In this document: piece after piece, positions 900 through 13,765 of the stretch | How the letters are laid out: every line of letters begins with the position of its first letter | How positions within the stretch are numbered: the first letter of the stretch is position 1 | Assembly (NCBI GenBank): GCA_036729925.1 | Contig: DAIMRG010000040.1 | Coordinates: 1 to 24,000, forward strand | DNA length: 24,000 nucleotides | Reading direction: 5' to 3' | DNA from: Clostridiales bacterium | GTDB taxonomy: Bacteria > Bacillota > Clostridia > DSM-8532 | Program-made: the position numbers and the translations under genes | Notes under the pieces: model-generated | The model's input: only the letters and a program-made list of their open reading frames with translations | What the model was told of the DNA's origin: nothing | Database searches by the model: none

Positions 900-1877
900 T
901 TATATAGCCTGTAATTCTAATCTTCCGTTTGATTCAATAATATACTGTAAGAGTTTTATTTCTTTATCTTCAAAACGCTTGCGCTGTTTCACATATTCTA
1001 TTACATCAGTATCAAATCGTTTGGCTATGGCACTGACCCGTACCATATTCATGTCACCTTGGACTTTTTTATGAATAAACCACGATTCGTAACCCATCAA
1101 TTGACGGAGAGCTTTGTCATCAAAACGATCCAACTTCACTTCAATGATATCATAGGACATAGTTTGTTGAGCATTATGAGGATTCCCAAAAAATAAGAGA
1201 ATATCAATTTCTGTCCCCAAGTTGGTGGGAATATAACTCAGATAGTCAGTATAGTTTCCAAAAATATCTTGATATTGCCCTTTAACAAAAGCTTCTAACA
1301 ATATTGCCATTAGTGATGCTTCATAACGTGGAAATAGATTATCGAATTTATGTATTTTATCAAACAAATTAGCAGGCTTAACAGGGTATGGTTCCAATAT
1401 AACATTCCGGTTAACTGTAAAAGGATTAATCTTAAGATATTCCTGCAATATAATGTCAAACTCTAAATTGGAAATAGAAAACATAGCGTTGGTGCCACTT
1501 GCCCTATTAAGAGCAAAAGTCCAAATCTTACCGGAATTTCGTAGATCAAAAATATCATTCAACCGTAATGGTTTTTCAAAACTAAATTTCGTACTTTCCA
1601 ACCGAAAACGGAAAGGGTATATTTTCTCAGACCATACGGGAGTATCATCGTAAAACGGCTGTCCTACGGCTGTCCAAATTCCGCGTAATTCTTTTACGCC
1701 CGTTACATAAAACAGGATGTAATCGCCTTCACGAATAATGGCCATTCTTGAAAGCAAGGCATCGTTAGTTGCTTGCTCGTTTTTGGAACCCGAACTCGCT
1801 TCGGGAAGACCTACAATTCCTCTTCGTGTACAAGTATGATAATTCTCATCATCAAGTACAAAGATATGTGCTGGCAT
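900..1877 (-). CDS. EVE/PUA-like domain fused to a PD-(D/E)xK (NucS/DUF91-like) nuclease; candidate modification-dependent restriction enzyme
   Basis: 325-aa ORF with ATG preceded by ggggagaag. The N-terminal half has an EVE-like pattern (GDYILFYVTGVKELRGIWTAVGQPFYDDTPVW...YPFRFRLE...PLRLNDI). The C-terminal half has ordered nuclease motifs: E (RYEASL), D (TEIDILLF), ExK (DIIEVKLD) and QxxxY (RQLMGYESW). A terminator lies at 792-828. Confidence 0.6.
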   Translation of the reverse strand: MPAHIFVLDDENYHTCTRRGIVGLPEASSGSKNEQATNDALLSRMAIIREGDYILFYVTGVKELRGIWTAVGQPFYDDTPVWSEKIYPFRFRLESTKFSFEKPLRLNDIFDLRNSGKIWTFALNRASGTNAMFSISNLEFDIILQEYLKINPFTVNRNVILEPYPVKPANLFDKIHKFDNLFPRYEASLMAILLEAFVKGQYQDIFGNYTDYLSYIPTNLGTEIDILLFFGNPHNAQQTMSYDIIEVKLDRFDDKALRQLMGYESWFIHKKVQGDMNMVRVSAIAKRFDTDVIEYVKQRKRFEDKEIKLLQYIIESNGRLELQAI

Positions 1878-2307: not shown

Positions 2308-3018
2308 CTATTCCTCCATATGATCCAGCATCTGCTCATTCAGATTGTCCTTAACAGTCCGCCAGTTTGGGTAGAAGTTGTCCATGTACGCCCTAAAGAT
2401 GTCGTTGTGGCTTTTCTCCAACAAATGCACAAGTTCATGGATAACCACATATTCAAGAGATTCAGGCGTTTTCTTTGCCAATTGTAGATTAAGCCATATT
2501 CTTTTTGCTTTAACATTGCATGTACCCCATTTGGTACGCATGTTTTTTATTTGCCATTCACTTGCTTTTATCCCTACAAGTTTTTCAGATTTTTCAACTA
2601 CCGCGGGAATTGCATTTTTCAATATCTCACGATACCAATTATCCATGACATTGGCACGCTGCTGCGTGGTACTATCCCTGCGAACCTGAAGGATAATCTT
2701 CTGGCCGGAAACAGATACATCATTACGGATATTACTGTGTACCACATCTAAACGGTAACGCCTTCCCCATAGATAATGGCTTTCGCCGCTCATGTACTTG
2801 CGTTCGGTTTGCCTAGGTTGTTCAGCGAACTTTTGCCGCTGCTTTTTAATCCACACAATCCGCGATACGGCAAACATTCTGATTGCATCTTCCGTGGCCG
2901 ACAAGGGGGCAGTTATCCGAACCTTCCCATCAGGAGGAATCACCCTAATATACATATTTTTAATCAGTTTTTTTTCAGCGGTCATCTCAATTCCGTTAAC
3001 TGTTAAATTTATCATCAA
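2308..3018 (-). CDS. DUF45/YgjP-like HExxH zinc metallopeptidase (type I RM-associated)
   Basis: 236-aa ORF with the motif VVIHELVHLLEKSHNDIF (HExxH...H) near the C-terminus and the typical RMRTKWGTC segment. Its start overlaps the hsdR stop (3015-3018), which suggests translational coupling. Confidence 0.8.
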   Translation of the reverse strand: MMINLTVNGIEMTAEKKLIKNMYIRVIPPDGKVRITAPLSATEDAIRMFAVSRIVWIKKQRQKFAEQPRQTERKYMSGESHYLWGRRYRLDVVHSNIRNDVSVSGQKIILQVRRDSTTQQRANVMDNWYREILKNAIPAVVEKSEKLVGIKASEWQIKNMRTKWGTCNVKAKRIWLNLQLAKKTPESLEYVVIHELVHLLEKSHNDIFRAYMDNFYPNWRTVKDNLNEQMLDHMEE

Positions 3019-6000
3019 TATTCACTCTGCCCAATTACTATTTTCATAAGTTCTTTAGCCTTAACTTTATCACCATGCAGAACTGCTTCTACCGCACGCC
3101 GTATCTTACGTTCTTTCACAATATTCCCTCTAAAGCCATCTAACCGCGCATCAAGCACAGCGTTGTGTACGCTTATTGCAATTTCTTCATTACTATCCAG
3201 GTTATCAAAAAGCGCCCGCAGTGCCGCACTCGCCCTTATACTTTCAGGGTATCGTGATGTGCTTTCCGGTTTTCGGATGTCTTTCGCCAGCTCTACAATT
3301 TTCTTGAGGTATTCTTCGTAGTTAATAACCTCATTTTTTCGCTGCTCAATAATTTCTCGCAATAACGCCGACATCTTTTCATAGTATTTAGGATTGCTTT
3401 GTTGTTTTTCAACAATTTCTTTCTGTACATTGTTTTCAATGGTTTCGGCTACAGCTTCTTGCTCCTTCTTTGTTTTTGACGGCATATCTTTCACAGCGTC
3501 AACGCCGCACTCAACAAGAAGCTGCACCAGGGGAATATCGCCGAATGAAGACAATACTCTGCTTGGTTTTGCAGAAAGATAAGTATCTATCAAGTGCCTC
3601 ATATCGGGGTCATATCCCTTCAGATCGATATAATCACCGCTGGCCGCACGCACCACATCACGCACTTTAATGAAATACTGTACTTCTTGATCAAGGGCTT
3701 TAATTTGCTCAGAGGTATATGCATATCTTTCCTTTAATTCACCAGATACCTCTGAAAAAGAACGCATGACTGCAGCAGAGAGCTCATAGAGTTGTTCGCG
3801 TTTTGGCATGTTTTCTTCAAGCTCATCCAAATCAAATGCCTCAGAATTTTTTCCGCAAAAATAATGAATATAGTCAATATCTTCTTTTGGTATTGCGACC
3901 GGCTCACAAAGGGCACGCAGTGCCTCCAGGGCATCTTCTAATTGTTCTTTCGCCTTGTCAATGCGGTTGTTGAGCAGACCCGATACGTCTTCCTGATCAT
4001 AATTGTCAAAGGCTTCGGAGGTATAGTCCTCCACCGCTTTTTCAAGAGAACGGAACAAGTCTTTATAATCGATAATATAGCCGAAATCCTTGTCTTCGCC
4101 ATCCAAGCGATTGACGCGGCAAATTGCCTGAAACAGACCGTGGTCGCGCATGGATTTATCGATGTAGAGATAGGTCGTCGGTGGCGCATCAAAACCGGTC
4201 AGCAACTTATCCACCACAATGAGCAGTTTCATCTGGTCCGGCTGTTCAACAAACTTTTGTTTTACTTCCGCTTCAAAGGTATCCGCATCCTTGTCACCCA
4301 ACATCTTGCGATAGATTTCATATTGTTCGGCGGTTTCGGTTTCACCATCCTCGCCAACAGTTTCCGTTCTCAAATCGCTGGGATTGGGCGAATAGGATGT
4401 TACAATCGCACACTTCTTAAAACCGCTGTCCTGAAAAATCTCATAGTATTTGCAGGCTTGATAGATACTGCCAGCCACCAGCATGGCGTTGCCCCGCCCA
4501 TCCTCACGCAGGCGCGGTTTGGTTTCCATATCAAATATAATATCAGATGCAATGACGCCAAGTCGTGCTTTGGAACTAAATACTTTTTGTAAGTTTCAAA
4601 GCACGACTTGGCGTCATTACTAAATTCTTTTTGTAAGTTTCCCCATCGCTTTTTAAGCCGTGCTTTGGACACATCATTTAGCCCGCGCGTTTTCGACTCG
4701 AACCACGCATCAATTTTTTCCTGCGCAGCAACATCCTGCTCCACTTCGCGTGCCTCATAACGCAGATCAAGAACAACCTTATCCCGCACAGCCTCATCAA
4801 ACTTGTATTTATGGATATAAGGTCCGAAAATTTCCAGACTGGTCAACTTGTCTTTTTTCATCAACGGCGTGCCTGTAAAACCGATAAAGGTGGCACCCGG
4901 CAGGATGATGTTCATTGCTTTATGTAGCCGGCCGGATTGTGTGCGGTGGCACTCATCAACAAATACATAGAAATCGCCTTTGGGTGAAAAATTCTGCGGC
5001 AGCGCGCGCTTTATTTCCCCGATAAAACTCTCGTAGTCACGTTCAGATGCCTCGCCGCCTCGCCTGCCAAATTTATGAATCAGCGAGCACATTAGCGGTG
5101 GGGATGTATCATTGATTTTATTGACTAGATCACATCCACTTTTTGTGCGGACGATCTTTTCGTCCACACCCTTGTAAACCCGTTCGATTTGGGTGTCCAG
5201 CTCGTCGCGGTCGGTCACAACCAAAATCCGGCTGTCCGGTATGTTTTCTTTGACCCACCTACTGAGCCACACCATTGTAAGCGACTTGCCGGAGCCCTGC
5301 GTATGCCAAATAATACCGCCCTCACGCTGCCGGATATAATCCTGTGCTGCCTTGACACCAAAAAACTGGTTGGGGCGACAGGTCTTTTTCGTGCCGCTAT
5401 CGTAGACAATAAAATTATGTAAGATATCAACAAAACGCTCTTTGCTGCAAAGGGAAATCAGGTTTTTATCCAGTTTAATCGGGTATTCTTCATTTCGCTT
5501 TCGAATAGATACGGATGCCTCATCCGTCGCATTTTCATCTTCGCGCCATGAGAGAAAATATTTTTCGGGTGTATCGGTTACGCCGTACCGCATCCCTTCG
5601 GAGTCATTGCCTGCCATGATCAGGCCCACTGTGGCAAAAAACGGCAGGATAAACTCTTTGCGCTGGTTAGTGAGGTTTTGGCGTATCCCTTCGGACATGG
5701 ATACCGTGCTGCGTTTTAGTTCAATCACACCAAAGGCGATGCCGTTGATATAGAGCACTAAATCCGGGCGTTTTGATTGCTTGCCGGTATAGGTAACTTC
5801 CTCGGCTATGTAAAAATCATTCTCAAGGGGCTTGTCCCAATTGATAAAATGAACCGTGTTTGTATGCTGTCCAACACTTTCACTGACTTTTGCACCATAA
5901 CGAAGCAAGGCATAGGTGGCTTTGTTGAGATCGTACAGACTGACCTGCTGATTACCTGCTGTATTGAGAAGCACCCGGAGCGCTCTGTCGATTAGAATAT

Positions 6001-6163
6001 TGGAATATCCCTGTTTTTGTAAAAAACCGCGCAGATATTCCTGCTCGATGTTGGAGTTATCTGGACGGTTGGTAAAATCACCGAGATAAATATATCCCAG
6101 CTCATTCACAAAGAGTTTAATGATCCGCTCCTGTATCTTTTTCTCTCTTTCACCGACACTCAT
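3015..6163 (-). pseudogene. hsdR: Type I restriction enzyme R subunit (HsdR), split by a 44-bp frameshifting insertion
   Basis: - The upstream ORF (4400-6163) has the N-terminal PD-ExK nuclease motif (PDLVLYINGIAFGVIELKRS), helicase motif I (HTQGSGKSLTM) and motif II (VFVDECHRTQSG).
- The downstream ORF (3015-4529) starts inside the conserved ...DIIFDMETKPRLREDGRGNAMLVAGSIYQACKYYEIF segment and carries the helicase C-terminal half.
- Removing 44 nt leaves 3105 nt, which is 1035 codons, and brings the two frames into register. Confidence 0.85.
4551..4640. repeat. Quasi-palindromic duplication inside hsdR (22-bp inverted pair plus 22-bp direct pair)
   Basis: - aatgacgccaagtcgtgctttg (4551-4572) is the exact reverse complement of caaagcacgacttggcgtcatt (4597-4618).
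- actaaatactttttgtaagttt (4575-4596) is repeated as actaaattctttttgtaagttt (4619-4640), matching at 21 of 22 positions. Confidence 0.9.
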
Positions 6164-6194
6164 AATATAACCCCCACACTGATGCTTTTACCTA

Positions 6195-7943
6195 TTAACC
6201 AAAAAGCTCCCTACTTTCAACAATTGCTTGCCTGATTGCCTCGTCTGTAAAACAGTCCTTTTTCAGCTTTGATGCCCACTCCTTGTTGGAGCGGATCACT
6301 TCCTTAATGGAATCCAAGGATACCTCCTCGCCGGACTTATCCAGCTCACAAACAGCCACATCCACCGTGGCAAGAACTTCTAAATTGTTTTTCTCTTTGT
6401 ATGTGTTATAATACTTGAATTTTTCATACAGCCAATCGATATTCGATTGCATGCTTCCAACATACTTTAAAGCCTCGTCAATATTCGCGCCCCTGCCGAA
6501 TTTTGAACCTCTATCGCTGCTTTGCCGGACTATATACCTGTTCTTGAAAGCGATGGCCTCGCCTCCCTTGTAGCGAGCTGCCTCGTTATACGGCCCTGCC
6601 GCCTTTTTTTTAAAAGCGGACACATCAGCATGCTGCTTGCGGCGCAAGAGATAGAGAAGCTTTTGCACCTTCACACGCCCAAGCGGGAATTTGTCGTTAT
6701 AAAATGTATTGACGATAGCGGAAATAGCAATGGCATCATCATAATATTTGTTGTGGCCAGTTGACACGACTTTAGGCTTGGCAGCAGTTTTAGTCTGTAC
6801 GGTTGGCTCAACAAGCCGTATTCGCCCCGTGAGCAACTCCTGCAGAATGCCTTGCTTGATAAGACGATATTTAGCCCGCTTTTTCTCAAGCTGCTCGAGT
6901 TCGGCGTCCATATCAGAAAGAATGGCGGCGATGGCAGTTTGTTCTTGATAGTCTGGCAACTCCACTTCGATTTTTTCTATCAGATTAGCACTCAGGCTCG
7001 GAACACCAGACGCTTCATTGTATTGTAGCCAATCAATCATACAAAACAAATAATAGAGATATTTCGCATGGTATCCATTATTAACTTTAGTGTAGAACAG
7101 AGTATCAATTGTCCAAAATGGTGTATCCATATATTGTGGCTTATCTATTGTACCTTTTCTTCCAATTAACACCGTTGGTTTATTCCATATAAATTGATTT
7201 GTGCGCCCGATAATGCCACCAGTAGCAAGTATAGGATATTTTCCGGTTTCATCAACAACGCTATTTTGAGATTGACCGTGTCCTACAGACAACGCTCTGC
7301 CTAAAGGAGCAACACACCACTCCCCACTAAACCCCGGCAAGCGTCTTTTCCCTGTGAGCAGTCCCTGCATCGCCCCCTGCTTTATAGCCTTTTTCTTCGC
7401 AATTAGCTTTTCCAGGGAGATAATCAGGCTGTCAACATCGGTAAGGGCTTCGGCAATAGCTGCTTGTTCATCTTTTTCAGGCAAGGGAATCTCGATTGCT
7501 GATAATTGACGTCCATTTGTTAGAGCACGCGTGGTATAAGTGCATCCTGCCATTATAGACCTGCGTACATCTGGTGTTGAAAAACAGTATTTACAGTAAT
7601 TAATATCAAATAAATCGGTTGTTGGACGCGCACGTAGAACAAAACCACTAAATACGCACTCACCAATATTATCCAGCATAACACTTGCATAGCCAACTTC
7701 TTCTGGCGTTTCAGATGTACGAGTAAAAAAAACATCTCCTTTTTTAACATCAAACCTTCTAATCTCATGTTTCGATAAAGAAACTCGACCTTTAAGCTGA
7801 CTTGCATGTATGCCGTTTCTACGATAGACATCCATATAATTTACAATAGGTATTCCATATCCAAAAAAGGATTTGCCTTTATTTAATCCATTTTTAAATT
7901 CAAAGCATTTACCAATTTTAACAACAGGCCACTTTTTCACCAC
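6195..7943 (-). CDS. hsdS: Type I RM specificity subunit (HsdS) with a roughly 200-aa C-terminal extension
   Basis: 582-aa ORF. Two variable target-recognition regions are separated by the two conserved coiled-coil repeats: EQAAIAEALTDVDSLIISLEKLIAKKKAIKQGAMQGLLTGKRRL and EQTAIAAILSDMDAELEQLEKKRAKYRLIKQGILQELLTGRIRLV. A normal HsdS ends at that point, but this one continues for about 204 aa. It overlaps hsdM by 7 nt. Confidence 0.85.
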   Translation of the reverse strand: MVKKWPVVKIGKCFEFKNGLNKGKSFFGYGIPIVNYMDVYRRNGIHASQLKGRVSLSKHEIRRFDVKKGDVFFTRTSETPEEVGYASVMLDNIGECVFSGFVLRARPTTDLFDINYCKYCFSTPDVRRSIMAGCTYTTRALTNGRQLSAIEIPLPEKDEQAAIAEALTDVDSLIISLEKLIAKKKAIKQGAMQGLLTGKRRLPGFSGEWCVAPLGRALSVGHGQSQNSVVDETGKYPILATGGIIGRTNQFIWNKPTVLIGRKGTIDKPQYMDTPFWTIDTLFYTKVNNGYHAKYLYYLFCMIDWLQYNEASGVPSLSANLIEKIEVELPDYQEQTAIAAILSDMDAELEQLEKKRAKYRLIKQGILQELLTGRIRLVEPTVQTKTAAKPKVVSTGHNKYYDDAIAISAIVNTFYNDKFPLGRVKVQKLLYLLRRKQHADVSAFKKKAAGPYNEAARYKGGEAIAFKNRYIVRQSSDRGSKFGRGANIDEALKYVGSMQSNIDWLYEKFKYYNTYKEKNNLEVLATVDVAVCELDKSGEEVSLDSIKEVIRSNKEWASKLKKDCFTDEAIRQAIVESRELFG

Positions 7944-10417
7944 ACAAACCCCATCCTTTTTAAATGAGATTTGACCTTGCTTTCCAGCTCTGCAACTACC
8001 GCCTCACATTCAGGCAGGGTAAACTCATATCGATCCACCAGTTCAGAAACGCGGGAAGAAAGCCGGTGCGAAACAGAAGAATGAATGGTATCAATTCCAT
8101 TATAAATCGCATGAAACCACTTTTCCTCCACCAGAAGCTGTTTAATTTCCGCATCGGTCAGTTGCTCGTATTTTTCCCTGGCCGCCATGTCTAACATAGC
8201 GTTGAATTCCTTAATCAGCTTCTTGGCATCCGACTCAATCCCTGAAAGGCGCAGGTATTCCTGCAAAACCTCAATCTCCGCCGCACTGTCGGCATCGTTT
8301 GTAATCGACATTATACGAACCTTAATTGTGGCAGCTTTCATATCGTCTAAAGATGAAAAACATCCATCGTCACCGCTGTTTTCTTCCACCAATTCTTCAA
8401 GCTGTGCCGAGATGCCGTCAAGTTCTCCCTGATACTTTTGCAGCGCTTTCAGTTCGTCGAGATAAAAGTGTTCAATTAGCAAGGATTTCGGGATGATTTC
8501 ACCGTCATAGCTTTTGACCCTGTCGGTCTTTTCCTCGACCGTCGTGCCGTTGACTTTTTTCTTTTTCGTCACATACGCATAAACAATTTTACGGCCAATG
8601 CCATAACCTTCAAAACAGACGGCATATACATCGTCCTGCATGGTCTCTGCCCAATACTCCATTAGTTTTTGGTAGACATCGTATTTATCAATCAATGGAA
8701 CATCAGAAAATGCCGTAAGAAGCGCTTCCGACAGTTCATGGATAATCGCTTTCGGGTCATCCCCCTTGCAGAGGTTCATCAGTTTGGAAGTAACCTGCTC
8801 TTTCCAGGCCGTATAAGCACGGTCTACCATATTGGCATGATAAATAAACTCAGGATGAGAGGTAATTGTGCCAACCACATCATCTTTTAAGATTACCGAC
8901 TGGAAATAACCATCGCGCAAAGGCTTGAAAAGCATTTCCTTCATAAAAGGGTACACTTCCCAATATTCAGCCATGCTGTCTATATCGGCGGCCGGAACGC
9001 CACCGTTCAAATGGGCGTTGATATCCTGTAAATCCTCCGGCTCACTGCTGTCAATGTAGCGGGGAATGTTCAGGTTGTATTCGTTGGTTATTTTTATTTC
9101 ATCATTGGGAATAAAGCGCGAGTACTTTTCTATCTGTATCTGGTTATTGAACACCGTAACGATTTTATGAATATCCTGCTCACGCAGGCGATTTTTATTG
9201 CCATCCTTAACGAACTCTTTGGAAGCGTTGATTACAAAGATGCCCTGGCGTTCGGCAGCATCTTCCTTGTCGATTACGATGATGCATGCGGGAATACCCG
9301 TTCCAAAAAACAGGTTGGCGGTCAGACCGATAATGCCCTTGATATACCCACGGTCAACAATTTCCTTACGGATATCCGCCTCTGCGTTACCGCGAAACAG
9401 TACGCCATGTGGCAAAATAATGGCTGCTTTTCCCGTTGATTTTAGGGAGCGCAACACGTGCAGGAACCAAGCATAATCGCCGTTTTTTTCCGGCGGCACC
9501 TTGTATCCGTCGAATCGTCCATAAAGTTCCGTGGCATTATCGCCTTTGACGGTGATGTTCATTCCATCCATCCAAGACTTGTCCGAGAACGGCGGATTCA
9601 TGACGATATAGTCGAAGGTTTTGAGAAGATTGGGATTGCGTTCATCCTTAAACTGCGGGTTAGCAAGAGTGCTTTTGTTGCCTGCCACTTCTGCCGCCGC
9701 CATATTGTGCAAAACAAAATTCATACGGGCAAGACCGGCTGTTTCCTTCGTTTTCTCCTGCCCAAAGATAGCCACATTCGGCGTGCCGTCTGATTTTTTA
9801 GGAGCGGCATCCGCTGCGCGGATTAGTAGCGAGCCCGAGCCGCATGCCGGATCGTAAAGCGTTTTATCTGAGCCGGTTGCCTTGTCAATCCCGATAACCT
9901 GCGCCATGATGCGAGAAACCTCTCCAGGTGTATAAAACTGTCCTTTGCTTTTACCCGACTCCACCGCAAAGTTTTTCATCAAGTATTCGTATGCGTCACC
10001 AAGGATATCATCGCCACCGGCACGGTTGTATGTAAAATCAAGTTCCGGCTTCTGAAAAATCTCAATTAAACCGGAAAGCTTGTCCACGGCCTCTTTATCA
10101 GTGCCAAGTTCCTCGCTGTTAAAGTCAGCAATATCAATGATGCCTTTTAGCTCGTTAGCATCAGCCAGCGCGCCAATAATAACATTGATTCCTTCACCAA
10201 TGTTCTTCGTTCCTTTGAGTTTAATAATATCATCAAAACTTCCGCCTTGCGGGACTTCTATATCCCACGCGTCATTACTTTTGAAACGATCAGAGACATA
10301 TTTCACGAACAGCAAAGTCAATATATAGTCTTTATATCGCGCCGGTTCTACACCTCCGCGCAGTTTATCACATGCAGCCCAAATTTGGTTGTAAATTTCA
10401 CTTTTCTTAATGGCCAT
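7937..10417 (-). CDS. hsdM: Type I RM N6-adenine DNA methyltransferase subunit (HsdM), long form
   Basis: 826-aa ORF. It has the HsdM N-terminal domain (IWAACDKLRGGVEPARYKDYILTLLFVKYVSDRF), SAM motif I (LYDPACGSGSLL) and catalytic motif IV (IVMNPPFSDKSW). A long helical C-terminal region follows. Confidence 0.9.
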   Translation of the reverse strand: MAIKKSEIYNQIWAACDKLRGGVEPARYKDYILTLLFVKYVSDRFKSNDAWDIEVPQGGSFDDIIKLKGTKNIGEGINVIIGALADANELKGIIDIADFNSEELGTDKEAVDKLSGLIEIFQKPELDFTYNRAGGDDILGDAYEYLMKNFAVESGKSKGQFYTPGEVSRIMAQVIGIDKATGSDKTLYDPACGSGSLLIRAADAAPKKSDGTPNVAIFGQEKTKETAGLARMNFVLHNMAAAEVAGNKSTLANPQFKDERNPNLLKTFDYIVMNPPFSDKSWMDGMNITVKGDNATELYGRFDGYKVPPEKNGDYAWFLHVLRSLKSTGKAAIILPHGVLFRGNAEADIRKEIVDRGYIKGIIGLTANLFFGTGIPACIIVIDKEDAAERQGIFVINASKEFVKDGNKNRLREQDIHKIVTVFNNQIQIEKYSRFIPNDEIKITNEYNLNIPRYIDSSEPEDLQDINAHLNGGVPAADIDSMAEYWEVYPFMKEMLFKPLRDGYFQSVILKDDVVGTITSHPEFIYHANMVDRAYTAWKEQVTSKLMNLCKGDDPKAIIHELSEALLTAFSDVPLIDKYDVYQKLMEYWAETMQDDVYAVCFEGYGIGRKIVYAYVTKKKKVNGTTVEEKTDRVKSYDGEIIPKSLLIEHFYLDELKALQKYQGELDGISAQLEELVEENSGDDGCFSSLDDMKAATIKVRIMSITNDADSAAEIEVLQEYLRLSGIESDAKKLIKEFNAMLDMAAREKYEQLTDAEIKQLLVEEKWFHAIYNGIDTIHSSVSHRLSSRVSELVDRYEFTLPECEAVVAELESKVKSHLKRMGFVW

Positions 10418-10422
10418 AACTG

Positions 10423-10662
10423 TTAGTTTACTCCTCTGCCTTTTTCTTGAAGCATGGCTTCAGCCTCTATGCCATGCTGCTCACAAAAGGCAAAGAATAC
10501 CGACTTTGCCATCTTGTTCGGGTGGGTTTTGCCGTTTTCCCACCTGTTAATTGTCGTAAAACTTATTTTTAAGGCATGCGCCATTTCTTCTTGGCTCATG
10601 CCCAATTTATCGCGTGCATATTTCACAACTGAAGGAAAATCCATCGGCTTCACCTCACGCAC
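10423..10662 (-). CDS. XRE-family HTH protein, likely controller of the RM operon
   Basis: HTH_3 pattern: LGMSQEEMAHALKISFTTINRWENGKTHP. It sits 5 nt upstream of hsdM. The listed start at 10662 is GTG. ATG at 10644 with gaggtg 6 nt upstream is the more likely start, giving 73 aa. Confidence 0.75.
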   Translation of the reverse strand: MREVKPMDFPSVVKYARDKLGMSQEEMAHALKISFTTINRWENGKTHPNKMAKSVFFAFCEQHGIEAEAMLQEKGRGVN

Positions 10663-11642: not shown

Positions 11643-12281
11643 ATGTCGATTGAAGCACAGGATAAGCCAAAAGTACAACAAATCTACGTTCCAGCAGCGA
11701 AAGTGGAAATGTTTAATAGGGCTAAAGAAATCTTTAACGAGTCGTTATCTGCCGTGATTGTAAATCATTTAAGTGAATTGGTGGAAAAACGAGAAGCCGA
11801 ACTCATTGGAATGTCAGAACATATCATTGAGATAGGAACTTGGCCACCAAACTATTATAAGTACGGGCAAAAGAATAGCCGAAAAAGATTCTTTGGTAAG
11901 TTGATTCATAAAGCAGATAAAACCCTTTCTGCAGGAACAAATGCTTTTGCTGTTGACTATGCCATCTACGCCACAAAAGGTAATAACTTTCTATTGTATT
12001 ATCATATCCACTATCTCGGAATAGGTGGAAATATGGAAGAGAGTACATACTCAGCCGCTGACTACAAGGTCGTCAAATTTTTGTTCGACGAGGAAAAGCA
12101 AGCCATTAACGAAGATATCCTAGAAGTTGACTGGAGCAATCTGACAGGCATCCCATCATATTATGAGTCCGGAAATTCTATGCCAATTTCATTCCCAAAA
12201 AAAATGACGGTTCCTTTACAATTCTTAGAAGAGGCTTTAGATATATTGGATAAAGTTCCCATTGAGGATTTAGATATCTAA
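11643..12281 (+). CDS. Hypothetical protein, EXLDI-family-like (C-terminus ...PIEDLDI)
   Basis: 212-aa ORF. The N-terminus (IYVPAAKVEMFNRAKEIFNESLSAVIVNHLSELVEKRE) and the terminal E-x-L-D-I match my recollection of the uncharacterised EXLDI protein family. I could not run a search. Confidence 0.5.
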   Translation: MSIEAQDKPKVQQIYVPAAKVEMFNRAKEIFNESLSAVIVNHLSELVEKREAELIGMSEHIIEIGTWPPNYYKYGQKNSRKRFFGKLIHKADKTLSAGTNAFAVDYAIYATKGNNFLLYYHIHYLGIGGNMEESTYSAADYKVVKFLFDEEKQAINEDILEVDWSNLTGIPSYYESGNSMPISFPKKMTVPLQFLEEALDILDKVPIEDLDI

Positions 12282-12781: not shown

Positions 12782-13765
12782 TTAATCCTGGATTATAATC
12801 AAATCACTGTATTCACTCATAGAACCTATTTCTATTTCAACGGGTTCTAATTTTTCAACGGGTTTAAATGGTATAAATACTATTCTATATTCAAGTTGAT
12901 ACCAAAAATCAAATAACTTAGTTCCAAAGACATTCAACGGTCCCGGCGGAGGATTAAGCGGGTCTATATATAATATTGGAACCCCAAATCCATGACCTTT
13001 TAGTGTCAAAATTCTTCTTACCGATTCAACCACGTCACTCACAAACCGTTCTGGATTTCGTACAACAAGACAAGCATTGCTCTTAAAATCTCGGAATAAT
13101 CTCACGTCAGCCTCTTTTGCCATACAGTAAAGATAATAGTCTGATGAAGACTTTAAACATAGCCTTATATTTCCAATAGGCTTTAGTGGTGTTTTTTGTT
13201 CATCCTGTATAATTCTCACTCTATTAGGATGCAAAGCCAACTCCCGCCTTAGTTCATCATCTCGTTGGGCCTTATTCAAACTACTGTCTGTATACGCTGA
13301 TGCAGGTTTTATCAATATTGTCCCATTTCGATACATTTTAGCAAGATGTTCTTTATCTCCATACTTAACAAAATAGGGAGCGCGGGGAAAGGTTATCGTT
13401 TTCATTTTGCTAATTACGGTTTCAATATTGGGAAAAGAAATTAACTTTCCTAAATCCTGTGCAATTTCTGGCGGAGGAAACTGGCTTCCCTTTAAGGAAA
13501 GTTCCGTTTGTATTTCAGTAATAATTGGCGACCAGAACTTACTCCTTTCATCTGGTAATCTTAAAGAAATTTTGCCGTCTTGGTTTATCGTAATAAAGTT
13601 ATACAAAACATTTAAGCACCGCTGAAATAGTTCTTCCTTGGGTAAATACTCCATATATCTATCATTCAGATAATTCATTCGCCATAAATCTGAATTTCTA
13701 ATTTTTTGCATAAACATTCCCCCGTAACCAAAAGGTTTAAATCTACTTAATCTTATATCAGCCAT
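12782..13765 (-). CDS. Hypothetical protein, DUF2971-like pattern
   Basis: 327-aa ORF. Several segments recall DUF2971-type proteins by eye: YFVKYGDKEHLAKMYRNGTILIKPASAYTD...RDDEL, YYLYCMAKEADVRLFRDF and FGTKLFDFWYQLEYRIVF. A better start may be ATG 13717 or 13711, preceded by gggggaa. Confidence 0.45.
   Translation of the reverse strand: MADIRLSRFKPFGYGGMFMQKIRNSDLWRMNYLNDRYMEYLPKEELFQRCLNVLYNFITINQDGKISLRLPDERSKFWSPIITEIQTELSLKGSQFPPPEIAQDLGKLISFPNIETVISKMKTITFPRAPYFVKYGDKEHLAKMYRNGTILIKPASAYTDSSLNKAQRDDELRRELALHPNRVRIIQDEQKTPLKPIGNIRLCLKSSSDYYLYCMAKEADVRLFRDFKSNACLVVRNPERFVSDVVESVRRILTLKGHGFGVPILYIDPLNPPPGPLNVFGTKLFDFWYQLEYRIVFIPFKPVEKLEPVEIEIGSMSEYSDLIIIQD

Follow-up and report, generated by a model that had tools for sequence, protein, structure and literature searches.

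We analyzed a 24,000-nucleotide stretch of DNA from a Clostridiales bacterium (contig DAIMRG010000040.1 of GenBank assembly GCA_036729925.1, hereafter the window) that contains the operon of a type I restriction-modification (RM) system. Its specificity gene, hsdS, encodes an additional C-terminal domain, which we call the tail. The hsdS-tail gene (6195..7943, minus strand) is a single open reading frame (ORF) in the ORF listing of the window, with a GTG start and an uninterrupted frame of 582 amino acids (aa) that passes the junction between the two parts without a stop codon or a change of frame. One protein consists of a complete HsdS (aa 1–378), a 16-aa linker and a folded 188-aa domain. 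The HsdS core (6810..7943, minus strand) has two target-recognition domains and two conserved helices, and its C-terminus reads ...LLTGRIRLV. The extra segment that follows (aa 379–582; nt 6195–6809, stop codon included) begins with a low-complexity linker that is rich in Lys, Thr and Pro (aa 379–394, EPTVQTKTAAKPKVVS; 6762..6809, minus strand) and continues into a module of the DarG C-terminal domain type, delimited by a hidden Markov model (HMM) of the family (aa 395–582; 6198..6761, minus strand; stop codon at 6195–6197). In the alignment of homologues, the linker region is unaligned and variable in length and sequence, with a median length of 20 aa across 72 loci. The tail itself carries the motifs QKLLYLLRR, KKAAGPY, RYKGGExIA, LEVLATVD and EW..KL.

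According to Pfam, PADLOC and the ORF list, the core has the attributes of an HsdS protein: two target-recognition domains, the conserved helices, hsdM upstream and hsdR downstream. The Pfam model Methylase_S covers it in two stretches (E 3.6e-27). More than 20 PADLOC Specificity_I profiles stop at aa 370–381, several of them near their own profile end; for example, one aligns aa 5–377 with positions 29–438 of its 443, and full-length matches reach E-values such as 6.5e-64 over aa 5–377. The last residue of the 453-aa HsdS from the RRDM island of enteropathogenic Escherichia coli (EPEC) aligns with aa 378 of the window protein. Because the HsdS profiles and the EPEC HsdS all end by about aa 378, aa 379–582 are a genuine extra segment. 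The initial annotation had placed the end of HsdS at this same position, at LLTGRIRLV, which Pfam, PADLOC and the EPEC protein bear out; its coordinates are correct, and the peptides on which it relied (...LLTGRIRLV, EPTVQTKTAAKPKVVSTG and ...AIAISAIVNTFYNDKFPLGRVKVQKLLYLLRR...AAGPYNEAARY) are all present.

We found that the tail is a homologue of the C-terminal, DarT-sequestering domain of the antitoxin DarG, within the DarG branch of the wider Panacea superfamily. The NCBIfam model antitoxin_DarG (NF048014, an equivalog) matches the tail at profile positions 155–335 of 338 (E 4.9e-9) and the PADLOC DarG model matches it at positions 150–323 of 329 (E 3.1e-11), both solely via the non-macro C-terminal domain of DarG. 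The NF048014 scores of 37.2 bits for the whole protein and 35.9 bits for the extension lie below the curated cut-off of 250, and the NCBIfam match is repeated in 12 of 15 homologues. For a direct comparison, the EPEC DarG was located via PMC12255303 and retrieved with its surroundings as locus L088 (darG at L088:14465-15532). Aligning the family profile with residues 171–352 of this protein by hhalign gives a probability of 90.9% and an E-value of 1.1e-6 over 165 columns, and BLASTP of the tail against it gives 23% identity over 219 residues (E 2e-5). The tail and the EPEC DarG share QKL..LL.R, GPY, LELLATVD and a conserved Trp.

The predicted structure of the tail leads to the same family. 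An AlphaFold2 model computed from 15 homologues has a mean predicted local distance difference test (pLDDT) value of 87.7 and a predicted template modelling (pTM) score of 0.86. When the Protein Data Bank (PDB) was searched with Foldseek, the sole significant matches were chains B and D of 7YK3 (E 2e-4, probability 1.00, template modelling (TM) score 0.63 over the whole domain), which are the C-terminal domain of DarG in complex with DarT. The structure prediction and Foldseek search that the initial annotation had proposed did return an antitoxin domain, namely that of DarG, and no other significant PDB match. No PDB sequence, that of 7YK3 included, was matched by the family profile, and a Foldseek search of the model against viral-protein structures gave nothing significant (best E 0.14). 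The next PDB matches (E>0.1) are winged-helix proteins that cover just the first ~100 residues of the tail; among them are SSV1 F-93, APE_0880a, RosR and the ROQ domain, with probabilities of 0.5–0.9 and target-normalised TM scores of 0.5–0.6.

The tail is therefore homologous to DarG (DarG2 of E. coli EPEC; Mycobacterium tuberculosis DarG, PDB 7YK3) across the whole C-terminal domain and has the same fold, yet it differs from DarG in several respects. It sits covalently on HsdS, and its invariant motif KKAAGPY...RYxGGExIA is its own. The 582-aa protein has no match to the Pfam macrodomain model (Macro, PF01661), which detects the control, EPEC DarG, at E 2.7e-21. The tail is basic, with a median isoelectric point (pI) of 9.1 and a net charge of +5.5 across 86 copies, whereas the corresponding domain of EPEC DarG is acidic (pI 5.5, net charge −6). 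Neither a macrodomain nor a DarT was seen in the window or in the loci fetched for comparison. The tail has thus lost the features that make DarG an antitoxin of DarT. A role as a DNA mimic, like that of the DarG C-terminal domain, was considered and dropped because the tail is basic.

The initial annotation had likened the extension to the Panacea antitoxin domain (DUF4065, PF13274). The direct profile check against Pfam went against this: a scan of the extension alone gave no match at E<=1, PF13274 included. Likewise, PF13274 matched none of 15 aligned tail homologues at E<=10, and a locally built Panacea HMM matched none of 86 tail-bearing ORFs at E<=10. The gathering score of PF13274 is 25.7 bits, and the control, gp9 of phage phi52237, scored 65.8 bits. 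When the tail profile was aligned directly with a Panacea profile, whose alignment was built from this gp9, the hhalign match was weak (E 0.02, probability 2.4%) and in register on QKLLY...GPY. When a Panacea domain was modelled (pLDDT 94.9) and compared with the PDB by Foldseek, 7yk3_B ranked first, again as a weak match (E 0.19, TM 0.39).

DarG provides the missing step. Residues 191–274 of EPEC DarG match Pfam SocA_Panacea at E 4.8e-4 with 21.5 bits, below the 25.7 cut-off, and hhalign aligns the Panacea profile with residues 170–252 at a probability of 92.3% (E 5.5e-7, 34% identity). The toxin-binding domain of DarG thus looks like a Panacea relative, and homology between DUF4065 proteins and this C-terminal domain of DarG is also stated in a 2026 paper (PMC13621843). 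The QKLxY...GP(V/Y) pattern of Panacea, SocA and PanA is common to the N-terminal half of the tail, while the C-terminal helical half (LELLATVD...EW..KL) is common to the tail and DarG and not to Panacea; the dedicated toxin neighbor of Panacea proteins is absent beside the tail. As judged by sequence, the resemblance between the tail and Panacea appears real but transitive via DarG, at the level of the superfamily, and the tail is not a PF13274 member. Of the initial assignment, the alignment of QKLLY...GPY with Panacea and the antitoxin-type nature of the domain stand; its placement in PF13274 does not, and the nearest family is the DarG C-terminal domain.

We found the tail in many lineages. 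We searched 1.84 billion cluster representatives exhaustively with the HMM and obtained 945 proteins at E<=1e-3, 341 of them at E<=1e-30; nearly all of the best 150 matches are either proteins of ~570–660 aa that end in the domain or fragments. A pattern scan of one genome per species gave 150 genomes, of which the 80 best loci were analyzed. The domain ends a continuous ORF of 575–684 aa in 74 of these 80 loci, which come from different species; together with the single ORF in the window, this confirms the claim of the initial annotation that the fusion is in frame, without a stop or frameshift at the junction. The 80 loci belong to Bacillota, Bacteroidota, Spirochaetota, Pseudomonadota, Planctomycetota and other phyla. 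A tblastn search of 72,556 plasmids with the extension gave no match, and a megablast search of 5,426 complete E. coli genomes with nt 6000–8000 gave no near-identical DNA. The tail fusion is recurrent but rare among HsdS proteins. The possibility, raised at the outset, that the extension is a common and already annotated HsdS C-terminal domain is half right: it occurs in hundreds of lineages, but the searched copy of Pfam has no matching model.

The operon and the tail are both conserved among these relatives, and the fusion marks a widespread lineage of type I systems with a long-form HsdM. Clustering of neighboring genes gives the order hsdM (median 816 aa), hsdS-tail (608 aa), 0–4 variable genes, hsdR (1034 aa) and an M48 peptidase gene (237 aa), and a homologue of the peptidase was found in 72 of 86 sources. 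Selection on the tail is strongly purifying, with ratios of non-synonymous to synonymous substitution rates (dN/dS) of 0.06–0.12, also between a locus with variable genes at this position and one without. Across sequences that are 34–100% identical, 25 tail columns are invariant. The continuous ORFs of the relatives, the purifying selection and the confident structure model all speak against a chance read-through. One copy of the domain is free-standing (212 aa, L004:8001-8639) and lies convergent with genes for a 662-aa Methylase_S protein and a short N6_Mtase/Eco57I protein; at L004, the link of the domain with restriction-modification persists without the fusion.

Several loci show how the gene is represented in databases. 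In L001 (5807-5812; also in L002 and L003, all from gut Clostridia), an in-frame TAG lies in the second target-recognition domain of hsdS-tail with an ATG directly after it, so that gene callers give a 350-aa HsdS and a 281-aa tail-bearing protein; the same sequence occurs in three samples. On the chromosome of Owariibacterium komagatae (L016:8774-10561), a continuous 595-aa hsdS-tail ORF is catalogued just as a 286-aa 'hypothetical protein' with an internal start. Many database entries of the family are 170–350 aa long, so that annotation conceals the fusion, and at least one of them is such a gene-calling truncation of a continuous ORF; these entries were not accepted as evidence of a short isoform.

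The EPEC RRDM island provides a natural comparison, with the gene order rptR-hsdM (812 aa)-hsdS (453 aa)-darT-darG-hsdR-M48 (L088; PMC12255303). It has an orthologous backbone in common with the window (48% identity for HsdM over its full length, 47–56% for HsdR and 48% for the M48 peptidase), as well as a small upstream helix-turn-helix (HTH) gene and the hsdS-hsdR junction as an insertion site. The backbone of the window is of the RRDM type, which is characterised by a long HsdM (~810 aa), a ~1030-aa HsdR and an M48/YgjP-like gene that overlaps the end of hsdR; the gene order is kept in the relatives and in EPEC. The two systems differ in that the island has a plain HsdS and separate darT and darG genes, whereas the window lacks both genes and has a DarG-type domain as part of HsdS; upstream, EPEC has RptR as regulator and the window an Xre-type protein. 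DarG and the tail have a common genomic address: in an hsdM-hsdS-...-hsdR-M48 operon, each lies after the HsdS core and before hsdR. In a rough neighbor-joining tree of HsdM, the EPEC system nests among the tail-bearing ones, as does that of an E. coli plasmid, in which DUF262 cargo comes after a plain HsdS. Within a single backbone family, the DarG-type domain is thus found either on HsdS or in a separate DarG at the same junction. The frequent insertion of DarTG in type I operons has been noted, and left unexplained, in PMC5179494.

We then considered which genes accompany the tail. In the window, the gap between hsdS and hsdR is 31 nt and holds no gene. Among the 75 loci with hsdR in view, 37 carry cargo between hsdS and hsdR and 38 carry none. 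The cargo types are DUF3800, RhuM, RhuM-Fic, Schlafen/AlbA_2-HATPase_c_4, Shedu SduA, TIR, AbiTii and FRG, and in the examples read the cargo starts within ~40 nt of the hsdS-tail stop codon. In one group of close relatives, tails are 96–97% identical between loci with DUF3800, AbiTii or nothing at the junction, and in the same group divergence between the tails of DUF3800 loci reaches 17%. Across L006-L085, L087 and L088, the hsdS-hsdR junction is an insertion hot spot for unrelated defense genes, DUF262 and DarTG among them, whether or not hsdS has a tail.

DarT was sought in particular. It had no Pfam match among 17 ORFs of the window and no PADLOC match among 6, and a phmmer search with EPEC DarT as the query, run on every ORF of 60 aa or more from the window and 85 loci, gave a best E-value of 0.08. 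The FRG-domain gene in L001 was tried as a DarT-like partner and dropped, FRG being one of at least eight unrelated cargo types. An adjacent toxin that co-varies with the domain, as in PanAT systems, was not found, given the empty junction of the window and the 38 of 75 loci without cargo. The initial annotation had suggested that the tail couples the RM complex to a second, toxin-based layer; with no toxin gene at the junction of the window, no DarT in the window or the fetched loci and no co-variation of the tail with its cargo, the data lend this suggestion no support here.

What, then, does the tail do? We tentatively favor a mechanism whereby the tail is a tethered docking or regulatory module that acts on a constant partner of the restriction machine, a reading that we rate as possible and hold with less than even confidence. 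The tail would retain the basic activity of its family, gripping a partner macromolecule, and the grip would be directed at a constant component instead of a swappable toxin. HsdR or the co-translated M48 peptidase would be the most likely partner. In this way, the tail could serve as a built-in keeper or adaptor that sets when restriction is licensed or passes HsdR to the peptidase. A constant partner is favored because 38 of 75 loci have no cargo, because the sequence of the tail does not follow the cargo and because the free-standing copy in L004 adjoins an RM locus.

Several observations weigh against such a docking role. The EPEC island is an active phage defense (PMC12255303), which shows that the backbone works without a tail, and a long HsdM stands beside a plain HsdS on 60 plasmids, E. 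coli plasmids among them. M48 peptidases also accompany tail-less systems, so that the peptidase is not singled out as the partner. Panacea-type domains switch partners with few changes (PMC8832971), and a cargo-directed role is therefore possible in the cargo-bearing half of the loci. To these points is added that the winged-helix reading of the tail rests on the order of its secondary structure elements and on weak Foldseek matches (E 0.3–1). Since the backbone functions without the tail in EPEC, the tail is an add-on that is not needed for the core restriction-modification chemistry. Two tail-specific assignments were dropped along the way: the long C-terminal region of HsdM as a tail-specific partner, given the same 60 plasmids, and the M48 peptidase as a tail-specific component, given its presence in the tail-less EPEC island.

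Alternatively, the tail could provide accessory nucleic acid binding, whereby its basic, winged-helix-like N-terminal part binds DNA or RNA non-specifically and either raises the affinity of the complex for DNA or senses a DNA structure close to the bound complex, such as single-stranded DNA (ssDNA) or a stalled fork. We consider this unlikely, though not negligible. The positive charge of the tail is consistent with it, as are the element order helix-helix-helix-hairpin in model aa 6–91 and the winged-helix proteins among the secondary Foldseek matches. The invariant KKAAGPY...RYxGGExIA, which sits in the lower-confidence model residues 51–70, would by our reading of the model be placed at the position of the recognition helix. 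However, every winged-helix match has E>0.1, no HMM of a DNA-binding family matches the tail or its 15 homologues, and the homologous domain of DarG binds protein, not DNA.

A third mechanism is that of a tethered antitoxin, whereby the tail holds a toxic effector, encoded by the downstream cargo or elsewhere, that is freed when a phage mounts an anti-restriction attack. There is a precedent: the anticodon nuclease PrrC, a latent effector whose gene lies between hsdS and hsdR, is physically masked by the EcoprrI type I complex, in which Hsd subunits without modification do the masking. In our case, HsdS bears a dedicated domain of the antitoxin type, and no effector is identified. The tail does belong to the DarG/Panacea superfamily of toxin-binding antitoxin domains, defense-type genes follow hsdS-tail in 37 of 75 loci, and Panacea domains neutralise many unrelated toxins (PMC8832971). 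Yet in the window the 31-nt gap leaves no toxin gene at the junction, and DarT turned up in neither the window nor the fetched loci. In about half of the loci cargo is absent, and the tail is still under purifying selection there; tails remain 96–97% identical across cargo types or none; and tail-less relatives take cargo at the same place (DUF262 in L087, DarTG in L088). Consequently, we regard a tethered antitoxin as quite improbable.

Another reading, which we rate as equally doubtful, is that the tail acts as a built-in keeper and the RM complex as a guard. HsdR, the M48 peptidase or a downstream abortive-infection effector would be held by the tail and released upon an attack on the methyltransferase core, for instance by DNA mimics of phages, and the toxin-binding domain of DarG and the tail would be two forms of one RM-tied module. 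If true, this would account for the frequent presence of DarTG in type I operons, and part of the Panacea superfamily would be a device that couples RM to toxin-antitoxin systems.

Two further explanations fare worse. As a decoy, the basic tail would lie near the DNA-binding groove and capture acidic inhibitors such as Ocr or ArdA, thereby shielding the methyltransferase core. Its charge is opposite to that of its DarG relative, whose C-terminal domain is described as an ssDNA mimic in the title of Deep et al. 2023 (cited in PMC12170906), and its flexible linker (median ~20 aa) would suit such a role; the proposal is nevertheless pure inference, with no sequence or structural similarity to a known binder of Ocr or ArdA, and we consider it very unlikely. 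Finally, the fusion could be a non-functional remnant, left when a deletion brought hsdS and the 3′ part of darG together, or the product of a faulty assembly, as might be thought from the position of darT-darG at exactly this place in the EPEC island and from the damaged hsdR of the window, but we dismiss this as extremely improbable: the junction is conserved in hundreds of divergent lineages, dN/dS is ~0.1, and the tail, at 23% identity to EPEC DarG, is far more diverged than the backbone proteins (47–56%), which speaks against a recent deletion.

HsdS is usually regarded as nothing more than a DNA reader; that a conserved lineage has a protein-binding domain of the antitoxin type on it implies a further step of regulation or coupling in this textbook enzyme. 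No description of a fusion of HsdS with a DarG-type domain was found in the searchable literature on DarG, DUF4065, HsdS extensions and type I restriction. Within that literature, and going by sequence, a type I RM system with an antitoxin-type accessory domain on HsdS would be a new variant. It also provides a concrete handle on the DarTG puzzle (PMC5179494), in that the toxin-binding half of DarG has a relative physically in the same restriction machine, and it extends the DarG/Panacea superfamily to a setting without a toxin. A family model would improve annotation, as there is no Pfam model and at least one complete genome has the gene as a truncated 'hypothetical protein'.

The remaining genes of the operon surround hsdS-tail in the window. 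Directly upstream of hsdM lies a gene for a 79-aa Xre-type HTH protein (10423..10662, minus strand; Pfam HTH_3, E 1.8e-12), which is a likely regulator of the operon. Its gene stands where rptR is found in L088, but a BLASTP comparison of the protein with RptR was negative; the protein may be an alternative regulator for this kind of operon. Farther upstream, two ORFs (11643-12281, plus strand, 212 aa; 12782-13765, minus strand, 327 aa) have no Pfam or PADLOC match. The hsdM gene (7937..10417, minus strand) encodes a long form of 826 aa, with an N6_Mtase core and ~360 extra C-terminal residues; Pfam HsdM_N and N6_Mtase cover aa 10–461, and the PADLOC model MTase_I PDLC03027 matches end to end with 1094 bits.

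The hsdR gene (3015..6163, minus strand; Pfam HSDR_N, SWI2_SNF2, T1R_D3-like and T1RH-like_C) is disrupted and split into two ORFs (4400..6163 and 3015..4529). A tblastn comparison with the intact HsdR of L009 (88–89% aa identity) places a change of frame at ~4595–4607, and a DNA alignment with the intact L009 hsdR shows a 44-nt insertion at ~4598–4641. The insertion is composed of a direct copy of the next 23 nt and an inverted copy of 21 nt further downstream, which together create a perfect hairpin and a frameshift. Such an arrangement resembles the product of a template-switch mutation, or else an artefact of assembly. With hsdR disrupted, the local system probably only methylates; in this genome restriction has probably been lost, provided that the insertion is no error of assembly.

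Downstream of hsdR lies the gene for a YgjP-like/M48-type zinc metallopeptidase (2308..3018, minus strand; Pfam YgjP-like, E 9.5e-60), the start of which overlaps the hsdR stop codon. It is followed by a gene for a 325-aa protein with an EVE (PUA-like) domain (900..1877, minus strand), the C-terminal ~180 aa of which are unannotated; this protein might be the island's reader or nuclease for modified DNA.

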